This document shows positions 3,080-45,824 of a DNA stretch of 64,000 bases, in pieces. Under the pieces are notes generated by a model that saw only the letters and a program-made list of their open reading frames with translations, made no database searches and was not told the origin of the DNA. Source of the stretch: Minisyncoccota bacterium (lineage in GTDB: Bacteria > Patescibacteriota > Minisyncoccia > Phycocordibacterales > PALSA-1337); contig JBAYIX010000002.1 in assembly GCA_041665385.1 (NCBI GenBank), forward strand, positions 50,932 to 114,931, read 5' to 3'. Numbering within the stretch: the stretch's first letter is position 1; every line of letters begins with the position of its first letter. A program made the translations under genes and the position numbers.

Positions 3080-3244
3080 GTCCCGACTCACACACTCCCT
3101 TCCCTCGGCTGCGGATTCACTCGTCACATCTCGGCATTTCCACAAACTGTGCCCTGCAAGGATTCGGTCACAGTTTGGGAAATGCATCGAGATCTGACTT
3201 CGTGAAGAGTCCTCGCCTTCGGGAAGTGAGTGTGTGAGTCGGGA
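3080..3244. repeat. Compound long hairpin element G1 (~165 nt): near-perfect 25-bp outer inverted repeat GTCCCGACTCACACACTC..GAGTGTGTGAGTCGGGAC with nested inner hairpins
   Basis: Outer arms are at 3080-3104 and 3220-3244 with 1 mismatch. Inner hairpin GCATTTCCACAAACTGTG/CACAGTTTGGGAAATGC. Confidence 0.7.
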
Positions 3245-3392
3245 CCCCACCTTCTTCTTTTTGCGTCCCGAGGACTGTCTGAGAGAGTATAAATTTCTGG
3301 ACAAAATGGGAACCATTGCATGACCTCGTGACCATTTTGTCCTGAAATTTAACGAGCGAGTTCCGCAGGGACGCAAAAAGAAGAAGGTGGGG
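3245..3392. repeat. Compound long hairpin element G2 (~148 nt), in tandem with G1
   Basis: Perfect 25-bp inverted repeat CCCCACCTTCTTCTTTTTGCGTCCC (3245-3269) / GGGACGCAAAAAGAAGAAGGTGGGG (3368-3392). Inner hairpin GGACAAAATGG..CCATTTTGTCC. Confidence 0.7.
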
Positions 3393-3402
3393 TCCCGTAG
3401 CA

Positions 3403-4371
3403 CTACTTCACTCGCGATAAAAGCTTGACCACATCCGAATCCCTAGAATCACTTCCCAGTAGCACCACCGCATACATTTCCCTCTCCTCCCCAAAAGTAA
3501 ATATTGCCGCACTCGTGAGTTTTGCCTCCGGAATATAACCATTCTTGCCACCATAATAGTTCGACCAGTTCAGGAAGTGTGAAGGATTGACCCAGGTATG
3601 CGTACGCACAGTCTTTGTCTTCATATCTGTTATCTCCAATATTTCCGGATCATTCTTGCGTATCCAGTCCAGAATAATGGCGAGATCAGTCGCGGTCGAA
3701 CGATTGTCAGCGGAGAGACCAGACGGATCCCGAAAATATGTACGGTATGCACCTATCGTCTGAGCAAAATTATTCATGGCTTCTATGAAAGCCTTGCGGC
3801 CATAGTTGTGCGCAAAGGCTTCGGCGGCATCATTCGAGGAGACCATGAGGAGCGGGTAGAACATGTCTTTGGCCAGGAAAACCTCGCCTGCACGGAACTG
3901 GGCCGTATTGCCATAGGTATCGATGATGCTTTTAGAAAGGACGATGTGCTCATCGGGATCGATGAGCTTCCTCGCTACTATCGCAGTCACAAGCTTGGTC
4001 AAGGAAGCGACGGGCATGAGAGTGTCAGCATTGTTTGCGGCTATGACCTCGTCAGTGTCGAGGTTGCGGATGATATAGCCATTTGCAGTGATGTCATTTT
4101 CTAGAGACTGGGGGATATTGAGTGTGGCGGTATTTATGAGATCCTCTTCCTGACTCGCAGTATAGCGGATGAGACGACGGAAGCCCTCGAGACTGGTGCC
4201 TTCTATGGGCTGTTCGATGAGAGAAGCTATGGCATTTGCTGTCATATCGAGATCGATCCTAGAAATGACTGGCAATACATCATCATGAATCCAAACCAAA
4301 CCAAAATATATGCCAAAAAGGGCGATGATCATACCCAGGCCACCGTAAAGCACACTGAAAAATTGTCTCAT
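3403..4371 (-). CDS. D-alanyl-D-alanine carboxypeptidase (serine-type, PBP5/DacA family)
   Basis: N-terminal TM segment, SxxK (ASLTK) and SxN (SSND) motifs, class A/C low-MW PBP architecture. Confidence 0.75.
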   Translation of the reverse strand: MRQFFSVLYGGLGMIIALFGIYFGLVWIHDDVLPVISRIDLDMTANAIASLIEQPIEGTSLEGFRRLIRYTASQEEDLINTATLNIPQSLENDITANGYIIRNLDTDEVIAANNADTLMPVASLTKLVTAIVARKLIDPDEHIVLSKSIIDTYGNTAQFRAGEVFLAKDMFYPLLMVSSNDAAEAFAHNYGRKAFIEAMNNFAQTIGAYRTYFRDPSGLSADNRSTATDLAIILDWIRKNDPEILEITDMKTKTVRTHTWVNPSHFLNWSNYYGGKNGYIPEAKLTSAAIFTFGEEREMYAVVLLGSDSRDSDVVKLLSRVK

Positions 4372-6702: not shown

Positions 6703-6810
6703 CGTCCCGCCTGCATCCTGCCTTTTCGCAAGATTTGAAATAGTTGTGCAGGGTCCGAGTATTGTAAATACTTCACAAATCTTGCGAAAAGGCAGGATGC
6801 AGGCGGGACG
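6703..6810. repeat. Giant-hairpin element A: perfect 35-bp inverted repeat around a 38-nt conserved loop core
   Basis: Arms are 6703-6737 and 6776-6810, exact reverse complements. Loop AAATAGTTGTGCAGGGTCCGAGTATTGTAAATACTTCA is identical to the element B loop. Confidence 0.85.
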
Positions 6811-6816
6811 AATAAC

Positions 6817-7698
6817 ATGAAGTTAACAACAAAAAGAATATCCATAGAAGACTATCCGATATTGCTCAACGAAATATCGAGCCCTCCCCCACACATGGAC
6901 TTTGCTGGCAGATTTCCAGATAAAAAAGACAAATATCTCTGTGTAGTAGGATCTCGTCACAACAGCGTATACGGTGAAGATGTCACAAGGAAGCTAATAG
7001 CGGGCCTCAAAGGCTATCCCATAACTATAGTCTCTGGTCTTGCTGTCGGTATTGACTCCATCGCTCACGAGGCCGCTCTGGAGAATGGACTGAATACGAT
7101 ATGCTTTCCCGGGTCTGGTTTGTCTCTATCTGTACTCTACCCAGCTGTAAAGCGCGATCTAGCGCTCCGCATCGTGGAGAGTGGTGGCGCGTTGTACTCA
7201 CAGTTCGGCATGAACCAGCTCGGAGACAAATGGACATTTCCGAATAGGAACCGCACCATGGCCGGTGCATCTCATGCGACTCTCATCATCGAAGCGGCAG
7301 AGAAGTCCGGCAGTCTCATCACGACCAGTCATGCCCGAGAATTTGGCCGGGAAGTATTCGCCGTACCAGGATCCATCATATCCGACTTGTCTTATGGACC
7401 ACACAGTCTTATTCGTGACGGCGCGACACCTGTATATTCTGCTGAGGATATCTTGCAGGGATTGGGATTCCAGGTCATACGGACAGATGGAATGATTTCC
7501 GCCTTGCCAAATTATTCTGAGATGAAGCTGGAACCAGATCAGAGAACTATCATAGATCATCTTCGCATCGAGAAGCTTTCATCTACAGGACTTATAGACA
7601 AGACGGGCTTTACAGCGACAAAACTCAATCTGGTGATTTCTGAACTCGAGCTATTGGGATTGGTAAAGGATGCAAATGGAATATATAGACTAATGTAG
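6817..7698 (+). CDS. dprA: DNA-processing protein DprA (Smf)
   Basis: Rossmann-like DprA core (GIDSIAHEAAL, GSGLS, TxxxAxE) and a C-terminal winged helix. Confidence 0.85.
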   Translation: MKLTTKRISIEDYPILLNEISSPPPHMDFAGRFPDKKDKYLCVVGSRHNSVYGEDVTRKLIAGLKGYPITIVSGLAVGIDSIAHEAALENGLNTICFPGSGLSLSVLYPAVKRDLALRIVESGGALYSQFGMNQLGDKWTFPNRNRTMAGASHATLIIEAAEKSGSLITTSHAREFGREVFAVPGSIISDLSYGPHSLIRDGATPVYSAEDILQGLGFQVIRTDGMISALPNYSEMKLEPDQRTIIDHLRIEKLSSTGLIDKTGFTATKLNLVISELELLGLVKDANGIYRLM

Positions 7699-7817
7699 GT
7701 AAAAGCGGACATGCAATGTGCTCTTTTTGCATGATTTGAAATAGTTGTGCAGGGTCCGAGTATTGTAAATACTTCACAAATCATGCAAAAAGAGCACATT
7801 GCATGCCCGCTTTTACC
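7698..7817. repeat. Giant-hairpin element B: 41-bp inverted repeat (1 mismatch) around the same core as A. It fills the whole convergent intergenic gap.
   Basis: Arms are 7698-7738 and 7777-7817. The loop is 100% identical to A. The arms overlap the dprA stop (7696-7698) and the desulfurase stop (7813-7815). Confidence 0.85.
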
Positions 7818-21157: not shown

Positions 21158-21177
21158 GCGCATTGGAAACAATGCGC
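21158..21177 (+). terminator. Intrinsic terminator (GAAA tetraloop) after the 20708-21136 gene
   Basis: GCGCATTG-GAAA-CAATGCGC followed by TTTT. Confidence 0.55.
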
Positions 21178-21293
21178 TTTTCTCTCGGGCACACAACTTT
21201 CTTTTTGTCGGATTTGAGAAGTTGTGCAAAGTCCGGGTAATCATAATAGCTCGCAAATCTGACAAAAAGAAAGTTGTGTGCCCGAGAGAAAAG
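21177..21293. repeat. Giant-hairpin element C: 40-bp inverted repeat (1 G.T wobble) around a 37-nt core related to A/B/E
   Basis: Arms are 21177-21216 and 21254-21293. Loop AGAAGTTGTGCAAAGTCCGGGTAATCATAATAGCTCG. Confidence 0.85.
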
Positions 21294-21302
21294 CTGTAGT
21301 GC

Positions 21303-36536: not shown

Positions 36537-36622
36537 TTTTTCTTTTGTTTATGATAAAAGCCATTACAACTGGTGTAATGATATCACATGCCATAAATGC
36601 GGCCTGTGGATAGTGGGAATAG

Positions 36623-36735
36623 GCAAGTAAAAGAGATGGCCTGCACTTTCAGGCAAATAGCAGAGCTACCTCGAAAACAGCCGACCACAATATTCTTCTA
36701 TTTGCCTGAAAGTGCAGGCCATCTCTTTTACTTGC
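36623..36735. repeat. Giant-hairpin element D: perfect 38-bp inverted repeat with the core in opposite orientation. The right arm overlaps the valS stop codon.
   Basis: Arms are 36623-36660 and 36698-36735. The loop reverse complement shares TTCGAGGTAGCTC and TTGTG blocks with element E. Confidence 0.8.
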
Positions 36736-38881
36736 CCGGCCACTTTTCCACAATGAGTAGTCTTTTGCCTGGAATAAGCATACATGACCATATCTCTTCC
36801 GTCACAAAAGGAATAAATGGGTGCAAAGCTTTCAAAAGTTTAGCTAAAATAAGCAATAAGAGTTGTTTCTTGGAATTTTTCTCATCTTCAGTACCCTCTT
36901 TCAGAGTTTTCTTGCTCTCTTCTAGGATCACATCGGCAAATCGGTGCCAGGCATAATGATACAGTTTCTCTCCTGCCATATAAAAGCGAAAATTTTCCAT
37001 ATCCGTAGTCACATCGGTAAGGAGACGGCTCAATTCTTCTTCGAGCTTGCGGTCATCTGCTGTCCAGCTGTCGAAATCCTCCACAAAAGCCGTATTTTCT
37101 GTTTCGGTAAAGACAAATCGGGAAATATTCCATAGCTTGTTCACAAACTTTTTATAAGCGGTAATCTTGTCTTCGGAAAGAGCGAGTGATGTGCCCGGAG
37201 TATTGCCGACCACGAGACCCATGCGGAAAGCGTCGGTTCCGAACTTGGCGGTGAGATCCAGAGGATTGATGACATTACCCTTACTCTTGCTCATCTTTTG
37301 CCCCTTGCCATCGAGGACGAGTCCGTGGAGGTAAACAGTCGCAAATGGCACCTCGCCTGTGACATACAAACCGAGCATTATCATACGTGACACCCAGAAA
37401 AAGATGATCTCGCCCGCCGTTTCCATGACATCAGTGGAATAATAATTCTTGAAATCTGGACTATCCGGAAAACCAAGTGAAGCAAAAGGCCATTGAGACG
37501 AAGAAAACCAGGTATCGAATGTATCGTTATCTTTCCTGACTTCCCCGCCGCACTTTGCACATTTTGTGATCTTGTTGTCCAGATCTACGTAACCTTCGCC
37601 GCATTTTTCGCAGATCTTGGCGGGAATGGGTATGCCCCACACGATCTGACGAGAAATATTCCAGTCCATAATGTTTCCCAACCAATGTTCAGTGATCTTC
37701 TCATAATGTTCGGGTATGTATACAACCTCCTTATTTTTTATTTTCTCCAATGCCTTCTCAGCCAAAGGTTTCATCTTTACGAACCACTGACTCTTCACCT
37801 GCGGTTCTATGGTCGTACCACATTTGTAGCAAGTACGGACCACATGTTTGTAGTTTTCATCTATTTTTTCTACGAGTCCCTTTACTCGAAGTTTCTCGAC
37901 TATGAGCGCTCGGACCTTACTGATATGCTGGCCTGCGAACTCTCCGGCAATGGGCAGGAGCTTTCCTTTTTCATCTATTATTTGTTCCTTGTCCAAACCA
38001 TGTCTCTCGGCAATGTCAAAGTCCACCGGATCGTGCCAAGGTGTGATAGTCATGACACCAGTGCCAAACTCCATATCTATGGCCTCATCTTTGATAACGG
38101 TTGCAGTTATGGGGCCATTGATCCATTCCAGGTCTATCTTTTGGCCGTCTTTGTACTGTGCATATCTCTTATCGGCAGGATGCATGACAACGTATTTGTC
38201 ACCGAACTTTGTTTCGGGACGAGAAGTACCAATGGTGAAAGGGCCGTACTTGAGATAGTAGAATTTTTCAGTGCGTTCCTCGTCCTTTATTTCCAGATCA
38301 GAAAATGAAGTCTGATGCTTGGGGCACCAGCTGACTATACGCTTTCCCCTGTATAGGAGACCGTCGGCGGAGAGTTTTGCAAATGTATTGTAAACAGTCC
38401 GCACAATAGCGGGATCGAGAGTGAACTTTTCCCGGGACCAATCACAGGAAGCACCCATCTTCCTCACTTGAGACTTGATATTTGCAGAATTTGTAAGAGT
38501 AAAGTCCAGAATTTCCTTGTAAAGGTCAGCAGGCGGTATTTCGAAACGTGTGCGACCTTCTTTTTCCAGTTTCTTTTCGTATACGACTTGTGTTTCAAAG
38601 CCAGCGTGGTCGAGACCGGGTAACCAGAGTGTCCTCTTGCCACGCATACGCTGGTAGCGGGTGATGATATCTTCGATAGTCATGACGAGACCGTGGCCGG
38701 CATGGAGAGAGCCGTTGGCATTGGTGGGAGGCATGAGCATACAAAATGTCTCTGCATCGGGAGCAGTGACGCCCACCTTCACACACTGGTCCGGGTCAAA
38801 AAAACCACTCTTTTCCCAGAGCGAGTAGATCTTGTCCTCGGTAGACGCGGGATCGTAGGGTTTCAGGAATTTTCCATCCAT
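36728..38881 (-). CDS. valS: Valyl-tRNA synthetase (short form)
   Basis: HAGH (HIGH) and KMSKS motifs, a ValRS-like editing domain and a zinc-knuckle CxxC pair. 717 aa. Confidence 0.8.
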   Translation of the reverse strand: MDGKFLKPYDPASTEDKIYSLWEKSGFFDPDQCVKVGVTAPDAETFCMLMPPTNANGSLHAGHGLVMTIEDIITRYQRMRGKRTLWLPGLDHAGFETQVVYEKKLEKEGRTRFEIPPADLYKEILDFTLTNSANIKSQVRKMGASCDWSREKFTLDPAIVRTVYNTFAKLSADGLLYRGKRIVSWCPKHQTSFSDLEIKDEERTEKFYYLKYGPFTIGTSRPETKFGDKYVVMHPADKRYAQYKDGQKIDLEWINGPITATVIKDEAIDMEFGTGVMTITPWHDPVDFDIAERHGLDKEQIIDEKGKLLPIAGEFAGQHISKVRALIVEKLRVKGLVEKIDENYKHVVRTCYKCGTTIEPQVKSQWFVKMKPLAEKALEKIKNKEVVYIPEHYEKITEHWLGNIMDWNISRQIVWGIPIPAKICEKCGEGYVDLDNKITKCAKCGGEVRKDNDTFDTWFSSSQWPFASLGFPDSPDFKNYYSTDVMETAGEIIFFWVSRMIMLGLYVTGEVPFATVYLHGLVLDGKGQKMSKSKGNVINPLDLTAKFGTDAFRMGLVVGNTPGTSLALSEDKITAYKKFVNKLWNISRFVFTETENTAFVEDFDSWTADDRKLEEELSRLLTDVTTDMENFRFYMAGEKLYHYAWHRFADVILEESKKTLKEGTEDEKNSKKQLLLLILAKLLKALHPFIPFVTEEIWSCMLIPGKRLLIVEKWPGK

Positions 38882-38908: not shown

Positions 38909-39022
38909 AAAGAGCCCAGCACACAATCATAATTTTCATAAAAGTGTAAGAAGTTGTGCAGGGTCAACGTTCGAGGTAGCTCTACACTTTTATGAAAATT
39001 ATGATTGTGTGCTGGGCTCTTT
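38909..39022. repeat. Giant-hairpin element E: perfect 40-bp inverted repeat around a 34-nt core AGAAGTTGTGCAGGGTCAACGTTCGAGGTAGCTC
   Basis: Arms are 38909-38948 and 38983-39022, exact reverse complements. The loop shares AGTTGTGCAGGGTC with A/B. Confidence 0.85.
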
Positions 39023-39036
39023 CAATCAAATTTTGC

Positions 39037-39375
39037 TTACCAATAGTAATTGTATGAGTACGAATATGCGGGATATACCGGATAATAAGAGTAAACAGGG
39101 TATGAGTAGACTATAGGAGCACTGTAATAGTAAGTAGGATAGACGGGCTGATAGCTGTACGCACAGCAAGGATTGTAATAATTATCGTTGTGATGATTGT
39201 ATCCACCATAATTCCCTCCCCCATGTCCCCAACCATAATTGTTTTGATAGTTGTTCTGATTGTGATTGTAGTTGCTGTACTGGGCATTTGTAGTAACGGG
39301 CATAGCAAACAACATGAAAATACCGAAGATTGCTGGAATCATAAACCCTGCAAGTTTTTTGTGATTTTTTGTCAT
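39037..39375 (-). CDS. Secreted Tyr/Asn/Gly-rich low-complexity protein
   Basis: Signal peptide, then YSYPVYSYYPVYPAYSYSYNYYW-type composition. Confidence 0.5.
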   Translation of the reverse strand: MTKNHKKLAGFMIPAIFGIFMLFAMPVTTNAQYSNYNHNQNNYQNNYGWGHGGGNYGGYNHHNDNYYNPCCAYSYQPVYPTYYYSAPIVYSYPVYSYYPVYPAYSYSYNYYW

Positions 39376-40928: not shown

Positions 40929-41080
40929 GGAGCTTGATGAATTGTTTTTATAGCGTGTTCGCAAAATCGCCCACTCCAAATTACTGCCGTATTTGCTTCC
41001 AAGGATTCAGCAAATACGGGCAATTTGTCGGGACTCGAATCACATTGCGAACACGCTATAAAAACAATTCACCAAGCTCC
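40929..41080. repeat. Giant-hairpin element F: 36-bp inverted repeat (1 mismatch) around an 80-nt structured core that differs from A-E
   Basis: Arms are 40929-40964 and 41045-41080. The core has its own hairpin CCGTATTTGC..GCAAATACGG. Confidence 0.75.
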
Positions 41081-41108
41081 TAACGATGATATTGTCAACA
41101 TTATGTAA

Positions 41109-41621
41109 TTATTTCTTACCCAAACTCTGCTCCACGATTTTCTTATATTCCTCAAAACTTTCCATGTCAAATTCCGCACGCCTTTTTTCTAATTCCTCTG
41201 GTTTCTCAATATCAATAAATTTTAGAACACCGTCTTTATCAATATTGTATTGCGTTCCAAACAGTTGAGGTAACCTTTGAATTATTCTCGATTTATCAAT
41301 CATATAAGCAATGTCTCTTTTTTGTATTGAAACAATATCAGCATCTTGAAGATATTTTATCGATTGATTTAAAAATTCAATATCTCCAGAATGTAACACC
41401 ACTAGCACGGCGGCTTTGTATGCCTTTTGTGAAGTTAAACTGATTGTTGGAAATCCAATTTCATTAATGATCTCATTTACAGTTTTAACATTCATCTTAT
41501 TTATTTCAGCAAGATCAGATGTGGCTATTTTCCCCACCTTAAAATCTTTTATTGCTTGTTGATCAGCTTCCAAAATTGCTTCCAGAATAAGAGTATATTT
41601 CTTAATTAAAAATGTATTCAT
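41109..41621 (-). CDS. Hypothetical protein, family A (A2). Paralogue of 24172-24687.
   Basis: Shares DQQAIKDFKVGKIATSD and GTQYNIDKDGVLKFIDIEKPEELEKRRAEF blocks with A1. A+T-rich. Confidence 0.6.
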   Translation of the reverse strand: MNTFLIKKYTLILEAILEADQQAIKDFKVGKIATSDLAEINKMNVKTVNEIINEIGFPTISLTSQKAYKAAVLVVLHSGDIEFLNQSIKYLQDADIVSIQKRDIAYMIDKSRIIQRLPQLFGTQYNIDKDGVLKFIDIEKPEELEKRRAEFDMESFEEYKKIVEQSLGKK

Positions 41622-41700
41622 AGCAATACTATACTATATACTATATCGAAAAGAAAAAAGGCACTCTTCGAAAAGGGTGCCCTGGTGCCGTGCCCGATGT

Positions 41701-41853
41701 TCAGTTGGTATCGCTGTCGCCGGAGCCCTGGATAAACGTGTCGTTTTCGCAAGCGCATCCCTGCTGAGGCGGATCCATGACTCTGACCGGGCAAGGCTCG
41801 GCGTTGAGAAACGTGATTGGCGTTTCATCTCGCCGCTGAGTTTTTGTGTTCAT
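41701..41853 (-). CDS. Candidate graspetide (ATP-grasp-modified RiPP) precursor peptide, 50 aa
   Basis: Not in the ORF track (a different frame from track ORF 41634-41828). MNTKTQRRDETPITFLNAEPCPVRVMDPPQQGCACENDTFIQGSGDSDTN lies 60 nt downstream of the ATP-grasp gene on the same strand, with a Thr/Ser + Asp/Glu-rich C-terminus. Confidence 0.45.
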   Translation of the reverse strand: MNTKTQRRDETPITFLNAEPCPVRVMDPPQQGCACENDTFIQGSGDSDTN

Positions 41854-41913
41854 AATTTGTCCATATTCTGGCTAGAACCCTAGCCTTTTGTTCAATCGCA
41901 TCCTACTACACTT

Positions 41914-42906
41914 TTAGCAAGAAAGCAAATTCGCGAGAGTCAATGATATTGGATGGCCAACCAGTTGTTCCGACGGCATCCACTGTCCTTGCGGGTTAAT
42001 CTCAAAAAACAAATAGCCGTCTTTCCTTGAAAAACCCATATCGATGCAACCGAACTTAAGTTTGAGAGAACTGACCAATTGGACACACTTACTCTCAAGA
42101 TCTTTCGGTAGATTATGCATAACGTATTTCCTTTTCGCATCATGATGTCTCCAGTCAAGGTTCGCTCCTTCTAAGTTATTCTCGATGATAATTTCAGAAG
42201 CAAACACCTTATCGCCGATAACGGTGATTCGGATATCCGAATCCTTGATTACCGCCTCTTGCAGGATAAATGGGCAGTTGGATACCTGCCCGATATGCTC
42301 CAACAGAAGCGGGATATCAACAATTTTCGTGTAGATCGCCTTGTTCTTCCGTGATTTATCATCAGGATCATTCGTCAATCGGACATAACTACTGCCGACC
42401 GCTTTCATAATGAGTGGAGCACCGGAATGCTTAACTACAAAGGCTTTAACCTTTTCAGGATCATTACTGATGCAGGTTTCCGGCACTTTGAATCCGATTT
42501 GCTTCGCCAGGGCAAGTTGAAGTGGCTTACGATTAGCGATCCTCGTCGCTTCAGGTTCTGAGACCCACAACACGTCCTTGAGAAATGCGAGTAAACAGCT
42601 AAGGGCTATCTCACTCTCATTTTGAATGTATTTCTGGAGCAATGTCTTCCTAGTGTTTTTCACTGGACCTTGCGGCCGTCTCCACCAAATACTCTTTATG
42701 GAATCCTCATCAAGCCGAAAGCCGTCTGACAAGGCCAATGAGGCACTGACTATTTTTTCAAATAGTATAGTGCCCGACATCGTCGTTGGAAATTCACCAA
42801 AGTTGATTAGGTGAGCCGTTTGTCCGATTTCCGCAAGCCTTTTCATCAAAAAAAGCGCGGACTGGTCTTTTTCATGTGAGGCAATGATTACAGTTTTTGT
42901 TTTCAT
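41914..42906 (-). CDS. ATP-grasp ribosomal peptide maturase (MvdD/MdnC-like graspetide ligase)
   Basis: 330 aa. N-terminal pre-ATP-grasp domain (KTVIIASHEKD..), WWRRPQ, RITVIGDKVFA, DWRHHD and FFEINPQGQW blocks typical of microviridin-type ATP-grasp ligases. Confidence 0.65.
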   Translation of the reverse strand: MKTKTVIIASHEKDQSALFLMKRLAEIGQTAHLINFGEFPTTMSGTILFEKIVSASLALSDGFRLDEDSIKSIWWRRPQGPVKNTRKTLLQKYIQNESEIALSCLLAFLKDVLWVSEPEATRIANRKPLQLALAKQIGFKVPETCISNDPEKVKAFVVKHSGAPLIMKAVGSSYVRLTNDPDDKSRKNKAIYTKIVDIPLLLEHIGQVSNCPFILQEAVIKDSDIRITVIGDKVFASEIIIENNLEGANLDWRHHDAKRKYVMHNLPKDLESKCVQLVSSLKLKFGCIDMGFSRKDGYLFFEINPQGQWMPSEQLVGHPISLTLANLLSC

Positions 42907-43150
42907 AGTTCATCTGTTTTAGACAATACGATATATTAGGACTTTTGTAAATAGTAGTCGTATAGGTTCAACGGCTTCGCACCACTCTGGTGAAGTATTA
43001 TCAAAGTCATGCAATACACATCAAACAAACACATGCCAAGAATTAGAAGGAACGTAGCTCGTCTGTACTTCATAGAATGGAATGCATGAATGGTTGGTCG
43101 GCACTTCGGATTTCATCACACTTCTGTAATGAAATGAATGACAGAAGCAA

Positions 43151-43178
43151 GAAAAATGCCCCACATGGAGATGTGGGG
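43151..43178 (-). terminator. Intrinsic terminator after the 43212-43604 gene
   Basis: CCCCACAT..ATGTGGGG stem with a U5 run on the minus strand. Confidence 0.55.
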
Positions 43179-43211
43179 TCATTGTATGTTTCCAAGGAAC
43201 CTTTTGCATTC

Positions 43212-43604
43212 TTACACATCGTGCAAGAGCCAGTCAGGCATCCCTTTGATAACCTTTTTACTCAGGGCATTTCCGTTTTTGGGAAAAAGCACGATAAGTA
43301 TGTTTCGGATCCGACACCGCAAAGTGAGGCGGTCGTCCCCACCATCAGAACTGGGACCGATATTGTTGGCCGTGTAGGTCGAGCCGTCTACAAAGAATTG
43401 GTCTAGATCGACCCACTTCCATCCAGTAGGTTTGGACGGATACCCTTCCCCTATAGCGCACCAAGAGAAAACAAAAAGGAGACCTTCCGGATTGCGTTCT
43501 ATTCTTTCGACTTCCGCTTTGTAAATGACGTTTTCTGCAGGCATCTGTATCTCCAGTTGCCCGCCGATGAATGACATGATCGTCTCGACAGTGATGCTAT
43601 GCAT
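43212..43604 (-). CDS. Hypothetical protein (130 aa)
   Basis: ORF with a downstream terminator. Confidence 0.45.
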   Translation of the reverse strand: MHSITVETIMSFIGGQLEIQMPAENVIYKAEVERIERNPEGLLFVFSWCAIGEGYPSKPTGWKWVDLDQFFVDGSTYTANNIGPSSDGGDDRLTLRCRIRNILIVLFPKNGNALSKKVIKGMPDWLLHDV

Positions 43605-43715
43605 AGGTAACTTTTGAGGTTCAGGTTCTTGAATATTATAACGTGTTTTGATATTTCTGTCAATTTGTTCACATCATGCTTCAGAGTTTTAAAATTTACC
43701 GAACAAGGAATAAAA

Positions 43716-44017
43716 AACCGACCAAAGCACTTGCCTGGTCGGGTGAATACGAGAAGTTACATCTACCTTGCAAACTCCCGGGGGAGTTGTTTGAGCCGAT
43801 TCACGTGTTATCGGAGTTAGCATTGGTCACCATGTTCAAAACATGACTCCCAATGATGCAACACAAGCTTCGGTCAGACTACCTTTAGTCAGTTTTGGAA
43901 ACTCTTCCACCTTAGCTGTATGTCTGGGCTAGACTCATTGCCGAGCAATGGGTTGACCACTTGGCTGTGCTTCACTTGGCTTCCCTCTAATCGCTGTCAG
44001 GCGATATTCAATGAACA
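43716..44017 (-). ncRNA. Candidate non-coding RNA (~300 nt) with promoter and intrinsic terminator. No ORF longer than 12 codons.
   Basis: Minus-strand TTGCAA-N17-TATTCT at about 44020-44050. Terminator CCGACCAGGCAAGTGCTTTGGTCGG plus U6 at 43716-43745. Internal hairpin CAAACTCCCGGGGGAGTTTG. Confidence 0.3.
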
Positions 44018-44121
44018 AACTCGCATTCGTAACTAGAATATAAAATTTTTAAATAAATTGCAAGGAATTGACAGCGCGACCAATAATCCGTACCATTATT
44101 TCAGACAAACCTCAAAATACC

Positions 44122-44882
44122 ATATGAAAAAGGATACTAGCCGGGATATCAATTTGCAGTTATATTTTTCGGAACAGCGCAGTCTCGAGATCAATATCGA
44201 GCAAGTATCGGCAAACCTCAAGAAAGCAATCGATGAGCTTGCAAGTCTAAAACACACAAGGGCCGAGGAAGTTCGCGGTCTGCTCAAAGCCGGCAGAACC
44301 ACCAGCGACGCTCTCTCGGATGAAGCTGTCCAAAGATACGGTATCGATAGACAAGTCATCGAATCCATCAGGCACTTCAATTCCAAACTCATGACAAACA
44401 AGGACCAAAAGCTCCTTGTCGTGGTGGAGTATCAGTACTGCTGGAAACATGTTATGTTCTCCAGGGAAAATGACGATAACCAATATCGAACAGCACGCGG
44501 TTATGTGTGCGGCATCCTCACCGGCGAGCGACTGGAACTACCACCTGACGGTTCAGTTATCTTACCCTTCTCGCGTCATGTTATCAGAGGACTTCCGGAA
44601 AATGAAAACAGAGATGTAAGTCTAGGCAGGCTAACTGTGACCAACTTCTTCTCGAACAAATTTAACCCGGACACGATCCTTTCAGGAATAATCCAAAGTG
44701 TTGATCACATACCCTCCCTTCTCAATTCTCCTCACTCCGAACGTCAAACAACAATACTCATTGGGGAAGAGATAACGGACGAGTCGATTTATCAAACAGG
44801 TCTCTTGGCACACGTCAAAAACCTAGACAAGATTCTCTCAACCCCTACGCCAGAAGAAAAGATTGCTGGCGAAAGTATCTGA
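44122..44882 (+). CDS. Hypothetical protein
   Basis: Track ORF 44058-44882. The start was moved to MKKDTSRD (44122) because a TTGACA-N17-TACCAT promoter lies at 44069-44097, inside the longer ORF. Confidence 0.45.
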
Positions 44883-44995
44883 GAAAGATTTTGAGATACT
44901 CTTGCGCGAGCCGCCTATGATAAGGCGGCTTTTTTGAAAACAAATTTATGATTATTTACAGACATAAAATCAAATGCTAGTCTTGGGTCAGATTT

Positions 44996-45511
44996 ATGAA
45001 CACTAACATATTGCACTTTCCCGTGGCTTCCGCAGATCCATTAATCGAGCGAGTGATCTTCTATAAACTTGAGAAAATGGGAATCGATCGTATTCCAGAA
45101 TTTCTCTCAACATGGTGTCGCTTCATCTGCGTAAGACCATTATTTTTCCAGGGATGTCTCACAACCCTATCGGAACTTGACCTATTTCACCCTACCGGAG
45201 TTTTTGGTATATATGTTTGGGACGGTCTTGATGATCCCGTCGAAAGACAGATCCATGAGACAGCTAATACTCTTTACCATGAACTGATCCATATAATGTT
45301 AATGGTCATTGGATATCCGGTCCACAATGAAGATAAGATCAGCAAGTGTGCAGAATCACTTGCCACAAGACAACCTCAGATACTTGAGATAGCGGAAAAT
45401 CTGTACCCAGGGTTTTTGGCTCCATACCGGAAGTTCGGACGTTTCTATCATCGGGATTTGGCACCTCAATTTATCAATAAAGTGCCATATAATTACATTC
45501 CGACAAACTGA
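44996..45511 (+). CDS. Hypothetical protein with HExxH motif (putative zincin-like)
   Basis: YHELIHIML. A terminator follows at 45523-45546. Confidence 0.4.
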   Translation: MNTNILHFPVASADPLIERVIFYKLEKMGIDRIPEFLSTWCRFICVRPLFFQGCLTTLSELDLFHPTGVFGIYVWDGLDDPVERQIHETANTLYHELIHIMLMVIGYPVHNEDKISKCAESLATRQPQILEIAENLYPGFLAPYRKFGRFYHRDLAPQFINKVPYNYIPTN

Positions 45512-45597
45512 TAATTTCACGGGGCTGGTCCATCCAGCCTTTTTTGATACACAAAATCATTTTAAAAAAGAAACAATCGATATCAATAAAATTATGG

Positions 45598-45616
45598 TGA
45601 CCATACGGGGAGTCGG
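45598..45616. repeat. Partial duplicate (17/19 nt) of the 3' end of tRNA-Glu. Possible att-type scar.
   Basis: TGACCATACGGGGAGTCGG here versus TGACCCTACGGGGAGTCGA at 45753-45771. Confidence 0.5.
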
Positions 45617-45715
45617 TCACGCGTCCTCGCCTACTGGCTCGGCGCTCGACCCCGCCTCGCTCGCCTTCGCTCGCTCCGGCTTTCGACTCTCTCCCCCGGA
45701 GATCACACACGACAC

Positions 45716-45745
45716 AAAAAGTCCCAGGATAACCTGGGACTTTTT
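45716..45745. terminator. Bidirectional intrinsic terminator next to the tRNA-Glu 3' end
   Basis: AAAAA-GTCCCAGG-ATAA-CCTGGGAC-TTTTT. Confidence 0.65.
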
Positions 45746-45752
45746 GGTCGTG

Positions 45753-45824
45753 TGACCCTACGGGGAGTCGAACCCCGATTCCAGCCTTGAGAAGGCCGTG
45801 TCCTAACCATTAGACGATAGGGCC
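45753..45824 (-). tRNA. tRNA-Glu (anticodon CUC)
   Basis: GGCCCTATCGTCTAATGGTTAGGACACGGCCTTCTCAAGGCTGGAATCGGGGTTCGACTCCCCGTAGGGTCA folds as a cloverleaf with 7-bp acceptor, 4-bp D, 5-bp anticodon and 5-bp T stems. Anticodon loop UUCUCAA. Confidence 0.8.

Follow-up and report, generated by a model that had tools for sequence, protein, structure and literature searches.

A 64,000-nucleotide stretch of DNA from a Minisyncoccota bacterium (GenBank assembly GCA_041665385.1, contig JBAYIX010000002.1, positions 50,932 to 114,931), referred to here as the window, carries on its minus strand what is very probably a compact cassette for graspetide biosynthesis, about 1.85 kb long (41100-42958). The minus-strand order is ATP-grasp ligase, precursor peptide, hairpin and a protein of the DUF6624 family (DUF, domain of unknown function). 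Judged by its sequence, the locus falls among the graspetide cassettes with DUF6624 already recognised in candidate phyla, but it belongs to a distinct sequence family and has a third gene order. A first-pass annotation of this DNA had described an enzyme and a peptide only, and so overlooked both the DUF6624 gene (41109-41621), conserved in 18 related loci, and the terminator hairpin. The open reading frames (ORFs) of 330 and 50 amino acids (aa) that it did describe lie on the minus strand as claimed, with a spacer of exactly 60 nt between them (41854-41913). No second ATP-grasp gene is present anywhere in the 64-kb window.

The limits of the cassette are set by comparison with homologous loci, which were collected by scanning one genome per GTDB species; the scan returned 24 loci, 21 of them in Patescibacteria. 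DNA similarity between the window and related loci is limited to 41100-42958, with sharp edges and 71-83% identity. Because the similarity stops at these two positions, the unit is a 1.85-kb cassette of three genes. Clustering of all neighbouring ORFs agrees with this delimitation: the ligase, the precursor and the DUF6624 protein are kept together, and every other neighbour differs between loci. The gene identities, their conservation, the selection acting on them, the ligase fold and the cassette boundaries are all directly supported.

The first gene (41914-42906, minus strand, ATG start) encodes a graspetide-type ATP-grasp ligase, or macrocyclase, of 330 aa, identified by hidden Markov models (HMMs), Pfam, PDB matches and a structure model. 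It is 100% identical to NCBI entry MFA6459025.1 from a Candidatus Paceibacterota metagenome-assembled genome. The protein comprises an N-terminal MvdD-like pre-ATP-grasp domain, which is the leader-binding part, and an ATP-grasp catalytic domain. Among NCBIfam models, maturases of RiPPs (peptides made on the ribosome and then modified) come out on top (TIGR04187 1.7e-58, MvdD 1.8e-46, MvdC 7.5e-44, grasp-with-spasm 1.6e-22), followed by non-RiPP families (RimK 5e-12, LysX 3e-10, glutathione synthetase 0.009-0.14). The best family is TIGR04187 (the GRASP_SAV_5884 subfamily), though its cut-off is not reached. In Pfam, the MvdD pre-ATP-grasp domain PF21068 reaches 33.0 bits (gathering score 27), and a RimK-type ATP-grasp domain is also present. 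All six PDB sequence matches are graspetide enzymes: CdnC, MdnC, MdnB, AMdnB, PruB (9bou) and PsnB. The AlphaFold2 model of the ligase (mean predicted local distance difference test, pLDDT, 83.9) finds MdnC as its best Foldseek match (E 6e-29, TM score 0.80). Graspetide macrocyclases exclusively occupy ranks 1-32; ArgX, RimK and LysX come in only at rank 33 and below, with E of about 1e-15. Ligase residues that are invariant across 21 aligned family members include W74-W75-R76-R77-P78, K127, K168, Q216-E217, R226, D251-W252-R253, D289 and E302-x-N304, which are presumably the canonical nucleotide-, Mg- and substrate-binding blocks of ATP-grasp enzymes. The 330-aa enzyme is a graspetide-type ATP-grasp ligase with MvdD/MdnC-type features, and on this point the first-pass annotation was right.

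A different identity for the same enzyme has some support in existing records. The JGI label for the ligase reads "glutathione synthase/RimK-type ligase-like ATP-grasp enzyme", the RimK model marginally outscores the MvdD domain in Pfam, and the small ORF is not in public annotation; the enzyme could then be a ligase of the RimK or glutathione-synthetase type that acts outside RiPP biosynthesis, next to an unrelated conserved micro-protein or a chance ORF. This is very improbable. The HMM ranking contradicts it, since RiPP-maturase models lead RimK by more than 45 orders of magnitude; RimK and glutathione synthetase, named beforehand as possible best hits, do not head the list. The structural ranking contradicts it as well, and so do the strict adjacency of the two genes, the conserved Thr/Ser and Asp/Glu core of the peptide and the frame-specific codon-position substitutions described below. 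In one Paceibacterota locus (L013, 3730-4900), the ligase frame is split into ORFs of 180 and 142 aa; the precursor and the hairpin are intact there, but no DUF6624 gene follows the precursor. The L013 copy may be decaying, or the split may be an assembly error.

The precursor gene (41701-41853, minus strand) has an ATG start and 50 codons plus a stop, and it is recognised from the ORF listing, its recurrence and the selection acting on it. Its translation is MNTKTQRRDETPITFLNAEPCPVRVMDPPQQGCACENDTFIQGSGDSDTN, with a computed monoisotopic mass of 5526.46 Da in the unmodified form. The N-terminus had been called leader-like, and it does contain a recognition motif, P12-I-T-F-L16 (41806-41820, minus strand), that is conserved in all family members. 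The C-terminal string rich in Thr/Ser and Asp/Glu had also been quoted correctly; it corresponds to the predicted core, E36 to N50 (41704-41748, minus strand), with the sequence ENDTFIQGSGDSDTN and no Lys. Candidate hydroxyl donors in the core are T39, S44 and T49, and candidate carboxyl acceptors are E36, D38, D46 and D48. A collection of some 15 billion predicted proteins does not contain the exact 50-aa sequence, and the genes on either side carry the consecutive NCBI accessions MFA6459025.1 and MFA6459024.1; the peptide is therefore unannotated in the source records, as had been suspected. No NCBIfam model is matched by it.

Recurrence and conservation show what the small ORF is. One small ORF lies directly 3′ of the ligase gene in every patescibacterial locus with enough downstream sequence (about 20 genomes), and a six-frame regular-expression scan of the window and the 24 loci found exactly one precursor per locus. 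Across 23 precursors, the leader motif reads P-[ILVF]-[TM]-[FLMYV]-[LQI], and the core has the fixed length E-x-D-T-x4-[S/T]-x-D-x-D-T-x-stop, with a single residue after T49. E36, D38, T39, D48 and T49 are found in all 23, position 44 is Ser or Thr in all 23, and D46 is present in 22. Three distant members (L013, L015 and L020) hold T-K-x-P-x-S-D in the core, nearer to the microviridin T-x-K-x-P-S-D; to judge from these sequences, part of the precursor family may form a Lys-derived lactam.

Ten close loci provide a measure of selection. Variable sites in the precursor frame number 18, 15 and 44 at the first, second and third codon positions, and the ratio of nonsynonymous to synonymous change (pN/pS) is 0.19 over the whole ORF, 0.24 for the leader and 0.075 for the core. 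The same strand carries two further ORFs that overlap the small ORF in different frames, in keeping with the earlier remark that the ORF track shows another frame; in these alternative frames, pN/pS is 2.6 and 1.5. In far-diverged loci, the DNA is no longer alignable, yet the precursor motifs and the reading frame persist. The pattern of conservation marks the precursor ORF as a gene that is translated, rather than as an RNA element or an ORF arisen by chance.

An intrinsic-terminator-like hairpin (41649-41683, minus strand), found by direct folding, separates the precursor stop codon from the start of DUF6624; it has 10 paired positions and a UUCG loop and is followed by UUUUUUCUUUU. All related loci have a GC-rich hairpin with a U-run here, and since its sequence is unrelated in divergent loci, what is conserved is structure and not sequence. 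Its presence in every related locus makes a terminator or attenuator a conserved part of the cassette design. A scan for consensus terminators did not pick up the hairpin, owing to an internal mismatch, and the folding z-score of the whole 66-nt segment is -1.06, which is not significant; the case for a terminator lies in its conservation across loci. The conserved hairpin, together with the lack of a clear ribosome-binding site, would also suit a reading in which what is conserved in the 153-nt segment is not a peptide gene but a regulatory RNA or leader without coding function, such as a DUF6624 attenuator. That reading is the least probable of those considered: substitutions are concentrated at third codon positions with the low pN/pS given above, the nucleotides become unrecognisable at large divergence while peptide motifs and frame remain, and Rfam returns no match over the precursor region. 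For a cassette with a translated precursor, the terminator would probably set a high ratio of precursor to DUF6624 transcript.

The start of transcription can be placed tentatively. A candidate sigma-70-like promoter, TTTACA-17-TATTGT (42923-42951, minus strand), matches the consensus at 9 of 12 positions, which is weak when taken by itself, and lies just upstream of the ligase start. It is counted inside the conserved block because DNA similarity to related loci reaches about 42954-42958. A run of TATAGT-like -10 boxes directly precedes the DUF6624 start codon, just past the terminator, which may mean that the DUF6624 gene is transcribed from a promoter of its own, with a very short leader.

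The third conserved gene (41109-41621, minus strand) encodes a 170-aa DUF6624 protein (PF20329, Pfam E 1.2e-15) and stands directly after the precursor in 18 related loci, or 19 with the window. Its G+C content is 0.31-0.33, versus 0.42-0.50 in the ligase gene and the surroundings. The AlphaFold2 model (pLDDT 94.6) is mostly helical with a small beta element, and no PDB entry reached E ≤ 0.001 in Foldseek; the nearest, 2i6h, is of unknown function too. Among 40 diverse members, D20, H77, D109, Q119 and R148 never vary, and Q21, A105 and Y121-G-T-Q124 hardly do. The conserved polar residues suggest an active or binding site. The family at large comprises 7143 clusters at 50% identity (E ≤ 0.001), many of which repeat the domain two or three times in tandem; some are fusions with TPR or NUDIX domains. 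A signal-like N-terminus occurs in about 14% of the best 147 representatives, and no signal peptide is found in the patescibacterial DUF6624 proteins. Domain fusions were considered as a guide to function and discarded as uninformative, since they comprise only TPR, NUDIX and tandem copies. In the literature, one paper mentions DUF6624, and there it figures as a co-occurring protein of unknown function. The protein is functionally coupled to the cassette, and might tailor the peptide, remove its leader by hydrolysis or act as the ligase's partner.

Related gene clusters have been catalogued in candidate phyla. Makarova et al. (2022; PMC8939145) described two branches of graspetide ligases in the candidate phyla radiation (CPR), the leader signature Phhx(1,2)h and, in these loci, a protein of unknown function named "cluster 23". 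The window leader P-I-T-F-L fits this signature approximately, with Thr at a "hydrophobic" position, as in CPR cluster 2658, whose leader is PLTFEFGE; that of cluster 1029 is PLMFLFGE (PMC8939145). Branch 1 has the core signature TxxxTx(6-10)Dx(1-4)D, with acknowledged exceptions within the branch (PMC8939145); the window core, T39-x4-S44-x-D46-x-D48-T49, does not match it. In the part of the precursor supplement of that paper covered by a text search, neither PITFL nor a matching GDSDT precursor occurs.

One member of these clusters is close enough for a direct comparison. The cluster-1029 locus (L029, a Branch 1 example from the Parcubacteria group), retrieved through the cluster-1029 precursor of Makarova et al., has the gene order precursor, DUF6624 (Pfam 2.7e-21) and 330-aa ligase, whereas the window has ligase, precursor and DUF6624. 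The two ligases are collinear and share 36% identity over their full length (171 bits), and the DUF6624 proteins share 31%. Among those compared, L029 holds the closest described relative; solved graspetide ligases reach at most 106 bits. Both loci have a DUF6624 neighbour and a core ending in D-T-x, and their leaders are alike (P-L-M-F-L-F-G-E in cluster 1029, P-I-T-F-L-N-A-E in the window). The ubiquitous "cluster 23" protein is probably DUF6624, at least in the L029 locus.

Another point of comparison is found in a recent catalogue, which reports DUF6624 at high frequency in graspetide groups 18, 20, 23 and 42 (Carter, Ramesh, Mitchell et al., 2026; PMC13097080). Group 42 numbers 22 clusters, many of them in candidate phyla; its synthetase has no conserved partner other than DUF6624, which is present in 81.8% (PMC13097080). 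The window shares with this group the combination of synthetase and DUF6624, the lack of any other conserved partner and a candidate-phyla origin. Its representative here, and the sole group-42 member compared, is a Candidatus Komeilibacteria locus (L025) with the gene order precursor, 309-aa ligase and DUF6624. Its ligase aligns with that of the window only over the C-terminal 206 residues (36% identity, 119 bits) and does not match the MvdD N-terminal domain model, which the window ligase does; identity between the DUF6624 proteins is 26%. The cores align on E-x2-T, D-x-D and the penultimate Thr, and the leaders differ (PLILD in L025, PITFL in the window). An EFI-type alignment score of about 31 (our own calculation, for one of the 22 members) stands against the value of 70 that defines groups, so there is no direct network link between the window ligase and L025.

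Microviridins are recognised by a TxKxPSDx(E/D)(E/D) core, a PFFARFL leader, a GNAT acetyltransferase and an ABC transporter, and their lactones join Thr4 to Asp10 and Ser9 to Glu12. The core and leader motifs agree with the sequences of PMC13097080. The window system shares with them the ligase fold and domain layout, MdnC being the top structural match, as well as a leader motif of Pro followed by hydrophobic residues and a core in which Thr is followed five residues on by Ser and then by two acids. There is one ligase instead of two (MdnB/MvdC and MdnC/MvdD), identity to MdnC is 25-26%, the MvdC and MvdD equivalog cut-offs lie far above the scores reached, and core Lys, GNAT and ABC transporter are all absent. 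The window locus is not a microviridin system. No GNAT, ABC transporter or exporter, or peptidase is encoded within about 10 kb of the cassette. The first-pass annotation had reported the missing GNAT and ABC partners and called the situation atypical; the absence stands, but it is atypical for microviridins only, as several graspetide groups hold just a synthetase and a precursor, or these and a DUF (PMC13097080).

Mechanistically, the cross-link chemistry, the ring pattern, the role of DUF6624 and the biological target are approached by inference only, and the scheme is based on homology with MdnC, CdnC and PsnB. The MvdD-like N-terminal domain of the ligase would bind the P-I-T-F-L leader of the precursor, and ATP would serve to activate the core carboxylates of E36, D38, D46 and D48 as acyl phosphates. 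The hydroxyls of T39, S44 and T49 would then capture these intermediates, producing omega-ester (lactone) macrocycles with a loss of 18 Da per ring. Three conserved donors make up to three rings, or dehydrations, likely, and the core without Lys leads one not to expect lactams in this member. The Thr-x4-Ser spacing and the two acids parallel the microviridin lactones, and T39-D46 and S44-D48 are therefore proposed as a working guess by analogy; T49 may link back to E36 or D38. Protease inhibition is the commonest known activity of graspetides.

Alternatively, the peptide could be a real substrate whose modification is not a set of simple lactones, either because DUF6624, as the key catalyst or an obligate partner, puts in another or an extra modification, or because the ligase joins the carboxylates to an amine or to another peptide. 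DUF6624 is conserved as strictly as the ligase, in all three gene orders, and combines five polar residues that never vary (D, H, D, Q and R) with the lack of any solved structural relative. Yet every characterised enzyme of the ligase's fold, among both the sequence and the structure matches, makes intramolecular side-chain esters or amides, and the conserved donor and acceptor pattern of the core fits that chemistry. The DUF6624 family is moreover very broad (7143 clusters), with many members secreted or fused to TPR or NUDIX domains, and so is not dedicated to graspetides. Such an arrangement is accordingly unlikely, though it deserves more weight than the RimK-like or the non-coding explanation. 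One precedent for a partner role is rosaritide (MirA, MirB and MirC) from Actinomycetota, in which a strictly co-occurring non-ligase protein is needed for the stability and activity of the synthetase (PMC13097080). MirC is a SurA/PpiC-like chaperone-domain protein unrelated to DUF6624, and is a precedent for one candidate role only.

Several observations weigh against the reading of the locus as a lactone-forming graspetide cassette. The ligase falls under the curated NCBIfam cut-offs for TIGR04187 (198.2 vs 350), TIGR04184 (158.8 vs 475) and TIGR04185 (150.1 vs 425), and since it is below every named maturase cut-off, its substrate logic is extrapolated. The proposed ring pattern draws on conservation and analogy only. 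Lys follows T39 in three distant members, so linkage chemistry may vary within the family, and D38 is not conserved in the group-42 core. No Shine-Dalgarno sequence is recognisable before the precursor ORF, nor before the two larger genes. With neither a leader peptidase nor an exporter nearby, release of the mature peptide is unaccounted for. Finally, this cassette and its relatives in candidate phyla are known from sequence and not from measured chemistry. The earlier remark that graspetides are scarcely described in candidate phyla needs correcting in this light, as computational catalogues of such clusters do exist, including group 42, although laboratory work does not underlie them (PMC8939145; PMC13097080).

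The want of a protease and an exporter is the reason for considering DUF6624 as a leader remover. A broader and more speculative proposal, offered as a possibility with the odds against it, is that DUF6624 is a new-fold enzyme performing an obligatory step on candidate-phyla graspetides, be it leader removal or further modification of the ester-linked core. The 1.85-kb module would then be self-contained, spreading horizontally among Patescibacteria into variable islands beside tRNA-Glu and supplying a peptide for dealings with host cells. Patescibacterial genomes are tiny, and little in them is recognisable as secondary metabolism. A module of strict conservation that is kept, and apparently exchanged, in such genomes is for that reason likely to matter for the episymbiotic lifestyle. 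As a test case, the cassette could hardly be smaller: the parts are a precursor of 50 aa, a single ligase and one partner, and the precursor family has an unusually sharply defined core of 15 residues. It is also a tidy setting in which to find out what DUF6624 does; that family exceeds 7000 sequence clusters and turns up in several of the graspetide groups. For annotation, the lesson is that standard gene callers miss the precursor in most records.

The cassette is situated in a variable island of orphan ORFs, with the valyl-tRNA synthetase (ValRS) gene and housekeeping genes on one side and, on the other, a cluster of mraW, a penicillin-binding protein (PBP) gene and murF that ends in tRNA-Glu. 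The flanking genes as a whole encode tRNA synthetases, NUDIX, MurF, PBP and MraW proteins and orphan ORFs. The tRNA-Glu(CTC) gene (45752-45824) is just downstream of murF, and a 19-nt copy of its 3′ end (95% identical) at 45597-45615, 155 nt away, looks like an integration-site remnant. Homologues of tRNA-Glu also occur near the cassette in L004, L008 and L011. In L008, the cassette begins about 220 nt past the tRNA-Glu homologue, whereas in the window about 2.8 kb of orphan genes (42958-45751) lie between them. This interval holds three orphan ORFs of 130, 274 and 171 aa, none of which reaches the Pfam threshold. The one of 130 aa has a promoter that matches the consensus perfectly (12 of 12, 43663-43635) and a terminator of its own (43178-43159).

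No matching direct repeats, sought as signs of a mobile element, bracket 41100-42958, and an unrelated long inverted repeat abuts the downstream edge. It is one of seven long, near-perfect inverted repeats in the window (3225-3412, 6703-6810, 7698-7817, 21176-21294, 36622-36736, 38909-39022 and 40929-41080), with arms of 35-45 nt separated by 29-98 nt, which makes them much longer than ordinary terminators. Three were placed against genes: two bracket the ValRS gene and the third is the one at the cassette edge. On the loop side, several arms finish with GATTTG / CAAATC. A further ORF of 112 aa (39037-39375, minus strand), without a Pfam match, combines a signal-like hydrophobic N-terminus with a remainder that is extremely rich in Tyr, Asn and Gly.

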